In this document: piece by piece, positions 3,135 to 7,964 of the stretch | Numbering within the stretch: position 1 is the first letter of the stretch | How the letters are laid out: each line of letters begins with the position of its first letter | Source of the DNA: Halomicronema hongdechloris C2206 | GTDB lineage: Bacteria; Cyanobacteriota; Cyanobacteriia; Phormidesmidales; Phormidesmidaceae | Assembly: GCF_002075285.3 (NCBI RefSeq) | Contig: NZ_CP021983.2 | Coordinates: forward strand, 1,950,001 to 1,982,000 | DNA length: 32,000 bases | Direction: 5' to 3' | Made by a program: the position numbers and the translations under genes | Notes under the pieces: model-generated | Told to the model about the DNA's origin: nothing | The model's input: the letters and a program-made list of their open reading frames with translations, nothing else | Database searches by the model: none

Positions 3135-3836
3135 CTACGGGGGAATAGCTTTGAAGCTAGTCGGTAAGTCTGAGTTAGGAAGGTTGCTTATGACATCACC
3201 GGAGGCTTGTTCCTGAAAGAGGCGCTGGTCTTGAGTACTGTAAATTTCTAAAATGCCCATGCCCATGCTGTTAATGCGAACAAAATACTGCACTGGTATG
3301 CCATTTTTTTCTCCATAAGCGACATAGCTGACAGCTTGCTCATACGGTTCTTCAGCTGGTACAAAAGTAGCAGCAGCCCCATTCAATTCCTGTCCATTTA
3401 TAAGTTTATTGAACGCGTTCATGGCGAGCCGATTGCCTGATTCAAAAACTCTGACTCCATAACTAGGAGTTTCAAATGCAAGTCGAGTAACGGTTATGGG
3501 AGAGATTGAGCTCTGAGCTGGTAAAGTTCGCAACTTTTCTAGGCTTTCTGCGTTTTTGTCCAAACTTTCTGTGTCTAAGACTTTGACAGCTCCAATCTCA
3601 GTCAAAAATCTTAATTGTTCGGTAGCGTCTTCGTTTGAAATGTCTTTGTTAGACAAAATGTCTGAGATAAGAGAGTACTCATATTTTAGCCTTTCAAGAG
3701 TTAGTGCTGTATGCCCCTCAAGACCCTGTCCAATCACTGAGCCCAGAAAAGTGAAAAATCCTGCTGCTCCCAATAATCCAATCCATCTCTCAGAATGCGT
3801 TTTGTTTTGTCTAAGCGGCTCTTCTATCTTTGTCAT
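3135..3836 (-). CDS. Hypothetical protein with one N-terminal transmembrane helix (orphan cassette-like gene)
   Basis: 233-aa ORF. It has a TM segment WIGLLGAAGFFTFLGSVIG, then a charged helical region and a C-terminal domain with no motif I recognise. AT-rich, with no obvious Shine-Dalgarno. Confidence 0.55.
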   Translation of the reverse strand: MTKIEEPLRQNKTHSERWIGLLGAAGFFTFLGSVIGQGLEGHTALTLERLKYEYSLISDILSNKDISNEDATEQLRFLTEIGAVKVLDTESLDKNAESLEKLRTLPAQSSISPITVTRLAFETPSYGVRVFESGNRLAMNAFNKLINGQELNGAAATFVPAEEPYEQAVSYVAYGEKNGIPVQYFVRINSMGMGILEIYSTQDQRLFQEQASGDVISNLPNSDLPTSFKAIPP

Positions 3837-3938: not shown

Positions 3939-4705
3939 GTCGGGTAAAGGAGGAAGTTTTAGATATGGCTTCCTCCCTCCCCTCAGAACCGTGCATACGA
4001 CTTTCACCGTACCCGGCTCAAGCAATGTCTTGAGATTCAGTGTCTCCGATTCTTAACAACCCTTACGAGTTGTCCTGACGGTTACGTTTGCAAACCGGAG
4101 CTTGCACCTAACTTTTCCCAATCAGTTAAGTCTCATCTCACCTTCAGTCAAGACCATCACCTGTCCCACGTCAGCACCCTTTCGGGTTAGGTATTGCCCT
4201 ATCTGCCCCGTTATGGTTTCCGGTTGCCTTTCGGCTGGCAGCATTCGCGTCTTGGGACATCCTGTGCCCGCTAAAGAATTCAGCTTTGGTTGCCCATCGC
4301 TTACCCGATTTTGAAGGCAAAATCAGGACTCTATCGGGGTTTCCTCGTTCCGCACGGGGTGGAGATGCGGTTGCCTTAGGACTCCTCTCTACTCCGGGGG
4401 CGGGGTGTTCTTAGTTGGCGTTTAGACGCCGCCAACCCCCATGTGCCCCAACATGCTCGTGTCAGCCCTTTCGAGCACTACGATTAACGAAGCCTCATCA
4501 AGGATTCATTTGCATTATCCCTAGCAACCTTGCCCTAGCCTGCACCCTCGATTTGGCTCCAAAGGTGCTTCAACACTTAACCTCATCTGCTGATGCTGCC
4601 CTCCCATTACTGGTTGAACATTCTGAGGCGGACATCCGCTTGAACACTAGCGGGGAAAGGCGTTTAAGAGCCTCTCCAACTCCCCCGAACGACTTCGAGT
4701 CGCGC
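3939..4705 (-). mobile_element. ORF-less group II intron (767 nt)
   Basis: Minus strand. Domain V lies at 3986-4019 (GAGCCGGGUACGGUGAAAGUCGUAUGCACGGUUC: AGC triad, 2-nt bulge, GAAA loop). Domain VI has an 8-bp helix GGAGGAAG/CUUCCUCC and a bulged A 7 nt from a ...CCCGAC 3' end. The 5' end reads GCGCGAC. An EBS1-like loop GUCUAA (4422-4427) complements the last six 5'-exon bases. There is no reverse-transcriptase ORF. Confidence 0.85.
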
Positions 4706-4989
4706 GTCTAACTTGTAATTCATCAGCATTACCTCCTTCGAAGCGGTCTAATCCACCTCTGCAGAGGTATTATCTACCATTCGTGCTAGATAACACCCCT
4801 CGGGGGAGATATAGTCTGCAGGAAACCGGTCTAATCACCCTGCTGGGAGTTTTATCCATCATCAATGCAATCTAATTCCCCTAAATCAGGGGATTGGGCG
4901 ACTAGAAAGCTCGATAAGATCCCAATCATAGGTGTTATCCAGCACTTGACGCGGATAATAGCCTTGAAACGGTGAGTTATCCGGCTAAC
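4706..4989 (-). promoter_or_regulatory. Candidate attI-like region: GTTAGAC core plus upstream direct repeats of (A/G)TTAG(A/C)(C/T)
   Basis: Minus-strand heptamers: GTTAGAC (4706-4712), ATTAGAC (4746-4752), ATTAGAC (4829-4835), ATTAGAT (4870-4876) and GTTAGCC (4983-4989). The two ATTAGAC copies sit in a longer repeat, GGTG(G)ATTAGACCG. The region lies between the intI-like start and the first cassette-like gene. Confidence 0.3.
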
Positions 4990-5074: not shown

Positions 5075-5580
5075 ATGGACCCCCAACCTAGGAAGCTGCT
5101 CGACCAGGTTCGAGATGCTATTCGGCTTAAACATTATTCCTATAAAACTGAGCAGACCTATGTCGGCTGGATTCATCGCTATACCCTTTTCCACAACAAG
5201 CAGCATCCCAAGGAAATGGGTAGTGCTGAGATTGAGGCATTCTTGACTCATCTCACCGTTGAAAAGCAGGTGTTAGCCTCTACTCAAAATCAGGCATTCA
5301 GTGCTCTGCTGTTTTTATACCGCCAGGTCTTGAATCAAGACCTAGGCAGCTCTATCAATGCCGTTCGCGCTAGGCCATCCCGGTATTTGCCAACGGTACT
5401 CATCAAAGCTGAGGTGAGATCAATACTCAGCCGGGTGACCAAGAGTCCCAGCCTCGTGATTCAGATACTCTACGGTAGTGGCTTACGGCTCAACGAAGGT
5501 CTACGGTTGCGCGTAAAGGATTTGGATTTTGCTCAGCGTCACGTTATTGTCCGTGATGCAAAAGGCAACGAAAGTCGATC
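5075..5580 (+). pseudogene. intI: Integron-type tyrosine recombinase (IntI-like), N-terminal ~168 aa only
   Basis: LLDQVRDAIRLKHYSYKTEQTYVGWIHRY..., ASTQNQAFSALLFLYRQVL, RPSRYLPTVL and LYGSGLRLNEGLRLRVKDLDFAQRHVIVRDAKG match the conserved IntI blocks as I recall them from IntI1. Similarity stops near 5580. The HxxR, IntI-specific patch and catalytic Tyr regions are absent. Confidence 0.75.
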
Positions 5581-5651
5581 AGGATTAAACTCCCATGAAT
5601 GCAACCGCCAGTCATCGCTGATATCTAGAGCCTCACGGTCGAGACTCCAGC

Positions 5652-5713
5652 CAGTCACCATTGACACTCTGGCAGTCACCACTGACACTCTGGCAGTCAC
5701 CACTGATACCTGG
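5652..5713 (+). repeat. Three tandem ~21-bp repeats (CAGTCACCAYTGACACTCTGG) with a degenerate fourth unit
   Basis: Units lie at 5652-5672, 5673-5693 and 5694-5713, read directly. They sit in the non-homologous tail that follows the integrase fragment. Confidence 0.9.
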
Positions 5714-5769
5714 AGGCTCACCAGTGAGATGGCAAGCCGATTGACTGACGTAAATCTAATAGGTGATGG

Positions 5770-6186
5770 CTAATCCATGGCGTCCAGCAAACCCTGTTGC
5801 TGCATGACACTGAGCAGCCAGTTGGCCATGGTGGCCCGACGGGTGAGGCGAGGGATCAACTGGTCCACGCTGTAGCCCTTGAACCCCAGGTAGGTTTTCA
5901 GCAGTTGTTTATTGTCTTTGGGAATGGAGCGGGTAAGCTTCACAGTGGCCGGACGGCTCTCGATGAAATGGGGCGGGATGGGATAAGCTTCCGCCCAGGT
6001 CGGCTCGACCATGTCAGTTTGCCATGCATCGTTGGCAGGGTCGTAGCGATAGCCGAGATGATGCCATACCAAACGGTTCACGGTGTCATCATCGAGGGTG
6101 TCGTTAAGAATTGCCCAAATGGTGTCAGTCGTCAGCGCTGGCAAGGCATCCATGGCGTTGGAGGTGGCAATAGGCGTAGGATTCAC
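5770..6186 (-). CDS. Conserved cyanobacterial hypothetical protein (possibly DUF1823-like)
   Basis: 138-aa ORF with core-like GC content. The sequence (...VNRLVWHHLGYRYDP...WAEAYPIPPHFIESRPATVKLTRSIP...) looks like a conserved small cyanobacterial/plastid-lineage protein. The family name is from memory only. Confidence 0.6.
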   Translation of the reverse strand: MNPTPIATSNAMDALPALTTDTIWAILNDTLDDDTVNRLVWHHLGYRYDPANDAWQTDMVEPTWAEAYPIPPHFIESRPATVKLTRSIPKDNKQLLKTYLGFKGYSVDQLIPRLTRRATMANWLLSVMQQQGLLDAMD

Positions 6187-6457
6187 TGACAGCCATGGTA
6201 TCCTCTGCCAGGTTCTCTCTCCAACTTGATTTCCGCTAGCTACCCCGTGATCTGACGCACATCACCGGTCCTTCAGGATCACGAGGATTCGTAGCCCCCA
6301 TCACGGGGACATAGCGCCAGAATCACGAAGATGTCGCGACAGATATCACCCCTGCCTAGGAAAAAACTACGCATAATGCAGTCATATCTGAGCAGCCAAT
6401 AATTTATTCCTCTAAACGCGTTTCCTGCTTTCCTCCGACGACAACTGCACACTTAAG

Positions 6458-6482
6458 CCCCGGCCTTAGGGTCGGGGTTTTT
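6458..6482 (+). terminator. Rho-independent terminator with no annotated upstream plus-strand gene
   Basis: Stem CCCCGGCC / GGTCGGGG (8 bp, one G-U pair), loop TTAG, followed by TTTTT. Confidence 0.5.
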
Positions 6483-6570
6483 ATGACGTCAGGCTATCAA
6501 GACCATCAGAACACCTGTAGAAGGGCAATGTTGCCTGATATAACGCCTACAAGCCTTGATATGCCCTAGG

Positions 6571-6599
6571 TTGCTTTTCCCCCATCGCTCTGCTACTCT
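6571..6599 (+). promoter_or_regulatory. Putative sigma70-type promoter of the tetR gene
   Basis: TTGCTT (6571-6576), a 17-nt spacer, then TACTCT (6594-6599). The predicted transcription start falls on the palindromic operator. Confidence 0.3.
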
Positions 6600-6604
6600 C
6601 GAAG

Positions 6605-6618
6605 AGACCGATCGGTCT
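6605..6618. promoter_or_regulatory. 14-bp perfect palindrome AGACCGATCGGTCT (candidate TetR operator 1)
   Basis: Perfect palindrome 13 nt upstream of the tetR ATG. An identical copy lies at 7264-7277. Confidence 0.55.
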
Positions 6619-6630
6619 TAAGTGTTGACC

Positions 6631-7227
6631 ATGGCTAAAGCCGACCTCACCCGTGCCCGTATCATTCAGCGGGCTGCCAACTTGTTTAACCTGCAAGGCT
6701 ATGCCGGTTCGTCTATGGCCGACATCATGCAGGCGACTGGGTTAAAGAAGGGCGGCATTTACAACCACTTTGCCAGCAAAGATGACTTAGCCTTGGCCGC
6801 CTTTGACTTTGCGGTGCAGCAGGTGAGTCAACGCTATCGAGAGGCCCTGCAGGACACCCCTGGTGCCATTGCTGGCCTTAAGGTGATCGTGGGGACCTTC
6901 TGCACCGCCCCGGATCAGGTGCCCTTGCAGGGGGGCTGCCCCTTGCTCAATACAGCCATCGAGAGTGATGACACCCACTCAGGCTTGCGGGAGAAAGCCC
7001 AAGGGGCCATGGGTGAGTGGCGGCGATTGATTCGGCGGCTAGTACAGCAGGGGTTGAAGGCGGGAGAACTGCGACCGGCAGTAGACCCTGATACGGTGGC
7101 TACGATTGTCATTTCCACGTTGGAAGGGGCCTTGATGATGACGAAACTCTATGGCGATCGCGTCCACCTGGAACGAGGCCAGGCCCACCTGGAGCACTAC
7201 ATCGACGACTTACGGGCCAGCCCTTGA
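6631..7227 (+). CDS. TetR/AcrR family transcriptional regulator
   Basis: N-terminal HTH RIIQRAANLFNLQGYAGSSMADIMQATGLKKGGIYNHFASKDDL. The ATG at 6631 is preferred over the GTG at 6622. Confidence 0.85.
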   Translation: MAKADLTRARIIQRAANLFNLQGYAGSSMADIMQATGLKKGGIYNHFASKDDLALAAFDFAVQQVSQRYREALQDTPGAIAGLKVIVGTFCTAPDQVPLQGGCPLLNTAIESDDTHSGLREKAQGAMGEWRRLIRRLVQQGLKAGELRPAVDPDTVATIVISTLEGALMMTKLYGDRVHLERGQAHLEHYIDDLRASP

Positions 7228-7263
7228 TCCCCATAAGCTCCACCTGTTTTTTTGATCCGAAAA

Positions 7264-7277
7264 AGACCGATCGGTCT
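7264..7277. promoter_or_regulatory. 14-bp perfect palindrome AGACCGATCGGTCT (candidate TetR operator 2)
   Basis: Identical to 6605-6618. Lies 37 nt after the tetR stop and 31 nt before the GST ATG. Confidence 0.55.
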
Positions 7278-7307
7278 CAAGACGACTGCCCTCTACAAGC
7301 ACGTACC

Positions 7308-7964
7308 ATGCTGACTTTTTACTACCATCCCCTTTCCCCTGTGGCGCGGCGAGTCTGGATTGCCCTGCTTGAAAAGGGCCTGCCCTTCGAAGCGCGCCTA
7401 GTGCAGCTCAATGGCGAGCAATGGCAACCGGAATTTTTGGCCCTGAATCCCTTCCATCATGTGCCGGTGCTGGCAGATGGGGAGCTCATCCTGATTGAGT
7501 CCCTGGCTATCCTGGACTACCTGGAGGCCCAATACCCAGCACCGCCCCTAACCCCAGCCAAGCCCGTAGCCCTGGCTCGGATGCGCATGGTGCAGATGGT
7601 AGTGGTAAATGAGTTAACCCCCCACCTACCGGCTCTAGTGGCCGAGAGTGAAGGGATAGAGTGCCAGCCTGGCGCTGCCCTGGAGCCGGGGCTGCGGTTT
7701 CTAGAGCAACAGTTAGGGAATGCTGCCTACTTCGGCGGTGATAGTCTCTCCCTGGCCGATATCACTGCCACTTGCACCATGTCCTTGATGCAGCGCCTGG
7801 GGGTAGCCTTGGCCGACTATCCGGCTCTGGCCGCCTGGCATGGTCGTATCAGCCAACGGCCCGCCTGGCAACAGAGCCAGCCTGAGGAAGCCGCCTTAGC
7901 CACCTGGAAGCGATGGCTAGCCCTGAAGATCAAGCGCCGCCAACGGCAGCTGGCCCGCCCCTAG
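7308..7964 (+). CDS. Glutathione S-transferase family protein
   Basis: MLTFYYHPLSPVARRVWIALLEKGLPFE...HHVPVLADGELILIESLAILDYLE is the thioredoxin-like GST N-domain, followed by a helical C-domain. The ATG at 7308 is chosen because the upstream part of the ORF is not GST-like. Confidence 0.85.
   Translation: MLTFYYHPLSPVARRVWIALLEKGLPFEARLVQLNGEQWQPEFLALNPFHHVPVLADGELILIESLAILDYLEAQYPAPPLTPAKPVALARMRMVQMVVVNELTPHLPALVAESEGIECQPGAALEPGLRFLEQQLGNAAYFGGDSLSLADITATCTMSLMQRLGVALADYPALAAWHGRISQRPAWQQSQPEEAALATWKRWLALKIKRRQRQLARP

Follow-up and report, generated by a model that had tools for sequence, protein, structure and literature searches.

A group II intron without an open reading frame behind an integron core in Halomicronema hongdechloris, probably one of a IIB1/CL1-type family that homes to integron recombination sites

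A stretch of 32,000 nt from the genome of Halomicronema hongdechloris C2206 (contig NZ_CP021983.2, positions 1,950,001 to 1,982,000 of the forward strand; hereafter the window) was analysed, and its minus strand was confirmed by sequence comparison to carry, from 4705 to 3939, a group II intron that is complete with all six domains, measures 767 nt and lacks an open reading frame (ORF). The intron directly follows the heptamer GTTAGAC, the R box (GTTRRRY core) of an attI-like integron site, and probably belongs, as a non-autonomous copy that has lost its ORF, to a IIB1/CL1-type family homing to integron recombination sites. Its identity, boundaries, fold, family, target motif and integron context were all observed in the sequence, and the coordinates of the features are collected in Table 1. 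Every element listed in the original prediction, which had been drawn from the letters of the window alone, was present in place or within a few bases.

Intron boundaries, fold and pairing with the integron core

The Rfam model RF00029, which covers domains V and VI, matched window positions 4021–3939 of the minus strand with a score of 55.6 bits (gathering score 40, E = 1.6e-08). The bulged A of domain VI that had been predicted seven nucleotides before a 3′ end in ...GAC was found at 3945, the seventh base from that end (3939). At its other end the intron opens with GCGCG (4705–4701), immediately after the heptamer (4712–4706). Plasmid sequences searched with blastn gave partial matches to other group II introns only, which were used for placing the boundary and not for identifying the element; GCGCGAC aligned with the canonical GUGCGAC of an intron of Sinorhizobium medicae, a partial plasmid relative. 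The 5′ ends of 86 family junctions read GCGCG in 77 cases and GUGCG in nine, and together with the S. medicae alignment they confirm the GCGCG 5′ end at 4705 that had been proposed. The boundary consensus of group II introns is 5′ GUGYG...AY 3′; the terminal AC of the window intron fits this consensus and GCGCG departs from it, with C at position 2. Judging from the junction counts, this C is a family trait and not damage, and it is compatible with proliferation of the whole family. It is not confined to the integron-targeting family, because two distant non-cyanobacterial relatives from Legionella lytica (L054 and L087) also begin with GCGCG. Starting the intron at an internal GUGCG (about 4354) would shorten it to 415 nt, the size of a IIC intron, and was rejected since all relatives align from 4705.

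One genome per species in GTDB was scanned with a degenerate 5′-end pattern, which returned 113 DNA stretches, and close relatives of the window intron were represented by 89 matches in 44 assemblies. The hosts were nearly all filamentous cyanobacteria (Leptolyngbyaceae, Nodosilinea, Alkalinema, Phormidesmis, Leptothoe and others), and 18 family copies were found in Nodosilinea sp. LEGE 07088. About 25 of the copies were complete ORF-less introns of ~766 nt. As an out-of-sample test, metagenome contigs were scanned for the exact 5′ end, which yielded 22 non-duplicate junctions. Copies at attC-type sites were also found in two metagenome-assembled genomes (MAGs) labelled Chloroflexi (L070) and Rhodobacteraceae (L116), reflecting either binning contamination or horizontal transfer with cassettes.

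A consensus fold with six domains and 217 pairs was obtained by applying RNAalifold to an alignment of 17 family sequences (alignment A2). Double-sided changes were seen in 82 of the 217 pairs, compared with a mean of 34.6 after shuffling (none of 500 shuffles reached 82), and in 15–28 pairs when the register was slid by 1–3 columns as a control.

The flanks of the other copies, the comparison of which had been suggested as a check on the original prediction, carried the heptamer almost universally. Counted over 85 unique junctions in genomes, the heptamer preceding the intron read G (79), T (80), T (80), A (76), G (63) or T (20), any base, and C (72) or T (12); with few deviations, family junctions were thus preceded by the class GTTA(G/T)N(C/T). 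All of the 22 metagenome junctions ended in (G/T)TTA(G/T)N(C/T). The 3′ flanks of the family copies were unrelated to one another, and the first base of the 3′ exon varied freely.

The last six bases of the heptamer (UUAGAC) constitute the putative intron-binding site 1 (IBS1), and their complement GUCUAA, the corresponding exon-binding site 1 (EBS1), was found as predicted in the terminal loop of a hairpin (GCGUCUAAA, window 4436–4414). The loop is nearly invariant in the family, compensatory changes occur in seven of the eight stem pairs, and EBS1 pairs with IBS1 at five or six of the six positions in 40 of 45 copies (six in the window copy). The complementarity alone is weak evidence because about 0.19 matches to one given hexamer are expected by chance in 767 nt, and if the match and its position beside the heptamer were a coincidence, a single such match would be unremarkable. 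It gains significance from the terminal-loop position, from the compensated stem pairs and from the evidence of the family and of out-groups. In distant relatives with unrelated targets, intron positions 281–297 contain a sequence complementary to the relative's own 5′ exon, and EBS1 of the window intron occupies positions 279–284; six Watson–Crick pairs with the own exon are formed in L012, L081 and L087, and five plus one G–U pair in L015. In L012 the exon ends in CAUCCC and the loop reads GGGAUG, and in L087 CCGCAU is matched perfectly over 6 bp by AUGCGG. Because these relatives with different exons have matching complements in the same loop region, the assignment of EBS1 is settled. A motif common to more than 100 independent junctions, together with out-group covariation in the homologous loop, leaves coincidence with next to no probability. 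Recognition of the integron core by EBS1–IBS1 pairing, the central claim of the original prediction, is well supported by these sequence comparisons.

In IIB1 introns, EBS1 is located in a terminal loop of domain I. IBS1 occupies positions −1 to −6, IBS2 positions −9 to −13 and IBS2a position −14 of the 5′ exon, and the 5′ strand of helix ID(iv) is followed first by a three-base linker (N-EBS2a-A) and then by EBS2 (PMC8643678). The same layout was found here, with UUA and five further bases following helix 13 of alignment A2. The family consensus EBS2, AUUUA, is complementary to UAAAU at −13 to −9, and the U of EBS2a to an A at −14. Mean pairing was best in the −13 to −9 register (3.13 of five positions, with 1.7–2.9 in shifted registers), and pairing of EBS2 with a copy's own flank exceeded that with shuffled flanks, the observed mean being reached in 34 of 5000 shuffles. 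EBS2a and IBS2a formed a Watson–Crick pair at 29 of 35 attI-like sites and at none of 10 attC sites. A free search for EBS2 by longest helix had been noisy and misleading, and became interpretable once the IIB1 register was fixed (PMC8643678).

Insertion sites, ORF loss and a proposed homing mechanism

The insertion sites in genomes comprised 68 attI-like sites and 18 attC-type sites, the latter with an R″ box ~85 nt upstream. In the attI-like sites, three palindromic repeats precede an L box (CTCTAAT, for example), which is separated from the heptamer by five bases. A divergent intI gene was present within 1.5 kb at 14 of the attI-like sites, and intact IntI proteins (320–321 aa, with the ALERKYP...WQ.VFP patch) were encoded in L017, L032 and L037; the region between intI and the intron in the window has the same three-repeat architecture as the attI sites beside these intact genes. 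Since attC-type sites dominate in the metagenome contigs, no preference for attI or attC is claimed. At 46 of the 60 attI-like sites with enough upstream sequence, no integrase gene was found within 1.5 kb and ordinary genes adjoin. These occupied sites without intI include L027, L065, L075 and L096, all from the MAG CBDHHL01, as well as L004, L030, L083, L101 and others.

The prediction that the 767 nt contain no reverse transcriptase (RT) ORF was borne out by tblastn with the family RT as query. RT-bearing relatives are ~2.36 kb long and encode a 554-aa protein (in L092 at 5898–7562) with RVT_N, RVT_1, GIIM and HNH domains, for which the closest solved structure, over the full length, is 6ME0 (T.el4h reverse transcriptase; E = 2e-124). 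T.el4h is a IIB1 intron with a CL1 RT (PMC8643678), and by its closest solved structure and its EBS layout the family is provisionally classed as IIB1/CL1-like. When compared with full-length relatives by blastn, the window intron aligned only at positions 1–626 and 676–767, and positions 627–680 are a short stand-in for the ~1.64-kb ORF region of these relatives. Because the same replacement segment, visible in alignment A2, is found in all ORF-less copies, the sequences suggest a single ORF deletion followed by spread of the non-autonomous form. Three assemblies, JADEWX01 (L018), CBDHHL01 (L075) and JAAUQQ01 (L045), contain both ORF-less and RT-bearing copies, which in L045 lie 1.2 kb apart on one contig, and it is therefore plausible that RT is supplied to the ORF-less copies in trans. 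In L045 (2037–7243), an intI fragment and an ORF-less intron occupying an attI-like site are followed by a cassette and, behind an attC-type site, by a family intron that encodes the RT; all of them point the same way.

In the mechanism proposed here, the EBS1 loop GUCUAA of the intron RNA would read the last six bases of the GTTRRRY core (UUAGAC), and insertion would take place immediately 3′ of the core, in cassette-sense orientation. The integrase crossover lies at G|TT, where new cassettes are inserted, and the intron lies six bases past it. At attI-type sites, EBS2 (AUUUA) and EBS2a (U) would also pair, with A-UAAAU at −14 to −9, and attC sites would be targeted mainly via EBS1. Retrohoming would be carried out by the HNH-bearing RT of a full-length copy. 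The R box, and with it the att site, would be preserved, so that the intron could travel with the cassette behind it. As the 5′ leader of the first cassette, it would be transcribed with the array and would have to be spliced out; since it has no ORF, splicing would need the maturase/RT of a full-length copy elsewhere in the genome. A scan of the metagenome contigs for the ligated-exon sequence (the intron-free allele) gave no match.

Alternative readings and comparison with known introns

A number of points weigh against the homing reading. That the intron splices and retrohomes, that the enzyme reaches it in trans and that the att site still functions when occupied are all inferred from sequence. 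The 5′ GCGCG of the window intron deviates from the GUGYG consensus. Rfam models for group II domains I–IV gave no match in it, even at E ≤ 10, and support for the fold therefore rests on the family alignment; the original prediction had treated a lack of covariance-model support for these domains as telling against itself, an objection that is overridden by the covariation in the family (82/217 pairs), and its expectation for domains V–VI was borne out by RF00029. Covariation between EBS1 and IBS1 within the family was weak (Fisher p = 0.08; 119 of 2000 permutations reached the observed value), and about a quarter of the sites have T at −3, which mismatches EBS1. The concurrence of GGCUAA variants with TTAGCC sites was accordingly set aside as proof, being a trend only at p = 0.08, and a strong test within the family is impossible because there is too little variation.

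Further points on the same side concern the window copy itself and would also suit a dead remnant, a structured 767-nt insertion that neither splices nor moves and separates the first cassette of a decayed integron from the promoter region. Domain V occupies the predicted 34 nt at 3986–4019 but is not, as had been stated, fully canonical, since the sole broken pair of the consensus fold is a G·A in domain V where 15 of 15 other aligned members have U–A, and the RF00029 score is 55.6 bits, compared with 62–66 bits for most of the relatives scanned. The window EBS2 (AUCGU) pairs with its own exon at only one of the five bases at −13 to −9, the tblastn search with the family RT found no match anywhere in the 32-kb window, and the integron next to the intron is probably inactive because the adjoining integrase gene is truncated. 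Arguments against decay of the intron are the retention of 216 of the 217 consensus pairs, which equals the best-preserved family members, the pairing of EBS1 to all six exon bases, an intact branch-point A, AGC triad and both ends, and the presence of only five window-specific substitutions in otherwise invariant columns. That the copy is dead is regarded as possible though doubtful.

The route of arrival was also considered. The intron might have been cargo: having inserted behind an attC core at another locus, it would have been cut out with a cassette, forming its 5′ end, and placed behind attI by the integrase. Lying six bases past the known crossover, it would move with the downstream cassette; many copies do follow attC sites, the type that dominates in metagenome contigs, and the EBS2 of the window copy mismatches the attI side of its junction. 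In CBDHHL01, moreover, an attI-bearing unit of ~885 nt is present in four copies, each of which stops precisely at G|TT; the TTRRRY hexamers and the DNA that come next differ between them. Neither an ORF nor similarity to intI nor an Rfam match was found in the 700 nt of this unit beyond the attI part. Against this, EBS2 and EBS2a are generally complementary to −14 to −9, bases to the left of the crossover that an incoming cassette would not bring, and the EBS2 pairing depends on the register and exceeds that obtained with shuffled flanks. Two loci with the same intron, cassette and hexamer behind different att sites were not found, and the candidate pair L022/L110 has a common 3′ flank but a differing hexamer. 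Arrival of this copy as cargo was judged unlikely, and as a general rule such arrival is disfavoured by the pairing of EBS2, across the family, with bases on the left of the crossover.

A first comparison is with the IIC-attC introns, which insert at TTGT/T in the bottom strand of attC, antisense to the cassettes, using the attC hairpin and a 3–4 bp IBS1 (PMC7923331). Like the present family, these introns (S.ma.I2 of Serratia marcescens being an example; PMC7923331, PMC3001079) are group II introns specialised in integron sites, leave the cassettes intact and can occur in arrays without an integrase gene. The common association with integron sites, some of which are attC hairpins, would be expected if the window intron were a member or an analogue of this lineage, to which the original prediction had referred as background, but the intron fails its defining features. 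IIC-attC introns have a small ribozyme, no EBS2 and an RT without an endonuclease domain, and insert within R″, whereas the family is IIB1-like, with a 6-bp EBS1, EBS2, EBS2a and an HNH-bearing RT, and inserts in sense orientation after R′ or the attI R box. Domains I–III of the window intron span ~600 nt and include the EBS2 loop, the family RT is closest to a CL1 enzyme, insertion after R′ is on the cassette-sense strand as opposed to the antisense TTGT/T (PMC7923331), and most of the genome sites are attI-like and have no attC hairpin. Membership of, or analogy to, the IIC-attC lineage is highly improbable.

A closer parallel is UHB.I2, a single IIB1/CL1 intron described by Sonbol and Siam (2021) directly after an attC site in sense orientation. 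It resembles the family in its IIB1/CL1 type, its position downstream of attC, its cassette-sense orientation and its non-canonical 5′ end (UUGCG), and differs, when compared by description only, in being a single copy with a protein reported to lack an endonuclease domain. Its authors did not find a target that is conserved among the homologues, nor did they propose that the intron pairs with the core, and their report includes no ORF-less derivatives, attI insertions or family. A description of the cyanobacterial family or of a group II intron at attI was not found in open-access and bioRxiv full text, although subscription journals or the Zimmerly database could hold one, and UHB.I2 seems to be the nearest earlier report.

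The IIB1/CL1 introns of Thermosynechococcus elongatus (Th.e.I3 = T.el4h; PMC2882425, PMC8643678; PDB 6ME0) have the closest solved RT and likewise a cyanobacterial host. They resemble the family in comprising few RT-encoding copies and many ORF-less copies that depend on RT in trans, and in having the same layout of EBS1, EBS2 and EBS2a. As their EBS sequences diverged, the T. elongatus introns came to occupy many sites that are unrelated to one another. The family, in contrast, has a constant EBS1, a single target class (integron cores) and a 5′ GCGCG instead of GUGYG. EcI5, a IIB1/CL1 intron of the Escherichia coli plasmid pO157 that is used as a targetron, shares IBS1 at −1 to −6, IBS2 at −9 to −13 and IBS2a at −14 (PMC8643678), but is autonomous, naturally targets another site and is not known to be linked to integrons.

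Integron-associated group II introns have so far been treated as a speciality of class IIC, a niche that the family reaches by a different route. It would represent a naturally occurring intron that resembles a targetron directed against a recombination site, with IIB1 pairing to the GTTRRRY core in sense orientation, in a phylum whose integrons have been little studied. If this is correct, the family would offer a natural scaffold for targeting integrons and would mark more than 100 integron-type sites in filamentous cyanobacteria, many of them attI-like and without an integrase gene; expression of the cassettes behind an occupied attI would depend on splicing. A wider interpretation is offered tentatively, and with more doubt than confidence: the IIB1/CL1 lineage might be a dedicated parasite or partner of cyanobacterial integrons, which reads the core (and the L box and spacer of attI) by RNA–DNA pairing, forms the leader of the first cassette, rides with cassettes between arrays and genomes, gates expression of the cassettes downstream of an occupied attI through splicing, since the many ORF-less copies depend on a maturase from elsewhere, and marks a second, independent origin of integron-site targeting by group II introns that differs in mechanism from the first.

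Integron context and further features of the window

Table 1. Features of the intron and of the adjoining integron in the window
Feature	Position	Strand	Basis
Complete ORF-less group II intron, IIB1-like, 5′ GCGCG...GAC 3′	3939–4705	−	Rfam domains V–VI, alignment to relatives, family consensus fold
GTTAGAC heptamer, R box (GTTRRRY core) of the attI-like site; last six bases = IBS1	4706–4712	−	Read from sequence
EBS1 GUCUAA, complementary to UUAGAC, in terminal loop of hairpin 4436–4414	4422–4427	−	Loop conservation, stem covariation, out-groups
EBS2 region: linker UUA (EBS2a = middle U) and EBS2 AUCGU	4480–4487	−	IIB1 layout of PMC8643678
Domain IV remnant: first codons of lost RT ORF (GTG CAA...AAC GTA ACC, 4107–4080), then replacement 4079–4026	4026–4107	−	blastn and alignment A2
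Domain V, 34 nt, AGC triad present, one G·A mismatch at seventh pair	3986–4019	−	Rfam match and family alignment
Domain VI with bulged branch-point A at 3945	3942–3982	−	Rfam match, alignment
attI-like region, three direct repeats (starts 4841, 4800, 4759), each with an ATTAGAC- or TTATCTA-type core	4713–4880	−	Direct repeats
Truncated integron-integrase gene; IntI-like residues 1–169 only	5075–5773	+	Pfam, TIGR02249
First cassette ORF, 233 aa, no Pfam/NCBIfam match	3135–3836	−	102 nt downstream of intron 3′ end
attC (R″ GTCTAAC...R′ GTTGGGC) between aspartyl-protease and methyltransferase cassettes, intron-free	2178–2264	−	Sequence, fold, rule-based scan
			

That the intron is placed behind an attI-like region and ahead of the first cassette, and is oriented with cassette transcription, was part of the original prediction and is supported by the TIGR02249 match of the neighbouring integrase gene, by the three-repeat region and by the attC site downstream. 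The integrase ORF contains the Pfam domain Phage_int_SAM_4 and a partial Phage_integrase domain, and matched TIGR02249 over positions 1–162 of 315 (E = 7e-59, 199.6 bits, below the full-length cut-off of 265). Past residue 169 (window 5582–5773) this ORF runs through three 21-nt tandem repeats (5652–5727), and it ends where a DUF1823 gene on the opposite strand (5770–6186) begins. The heptamer lies 369 nt from the start of the divergent intI, and the intron is oriented with the cassettes.

Downstream of the intron, the order on the minus strand is the 233-aa ORF, a two-gene unit with an aspartyl-protease domain, the attC site and a methyltransferase gene. The bottom strand of this attC folds as a hairpin (z = −3.4), and the site was found by a relaxed two-block attC rule, which has low sensitivity and returned nothing from 26 kb of control sequence; aligning the arms locally and matching a strict RYYYAAC pattern were both abandoned as ways of detecting attC, as they missed true sites. 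The last six bases of its terminal GTTGGGC can pair with EBS1 at all six positions, two of them as G–U, yet no intron is present there.

A scan for promoters and terminators around the attI region gave nothing above chance. In the 5′ exon, on the minus strand, a Shine–Dalgarno-like GGAGG lies 5 nt before an ATG, and splicing of 4727–4706 to 3938–3909 would create an ORF of 17 codons across the junction (MLMNYKLDRLVLKRLSS); neither the GGAGG-ATG arrangement nor the 17-codon ORF was conserved at other attI-like sites.

Two structural variants were seen among the relatives. In L027 (1808–3298) a 723-nt intron copy whose domain V is damaged is directly followed, in tandem, by a second, intact one; the latter is inserted after the 3′ end ...ACCCGAC of the first, which is target-like only in its last bases. 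The ORF-less copies L009 (816 nt) and L097 (836 nt) carry an extra hairpin of ~50 nt (AAGAGTTGGAGC...GCTCCAACTCTT) in the loop beside EBS2, ~240–300 nt into the intron, which looks like a small secondary insertion.

Elsewhere in the window, a perfect 16-nt palindrome present in two copies (6604–6619 and 7263–7278; GAGACCGATCGGTCTT / AAGACCGATCGGTCTC) flanks a TetR-family gene (6622–7227), for which the two copies may be operator sites.

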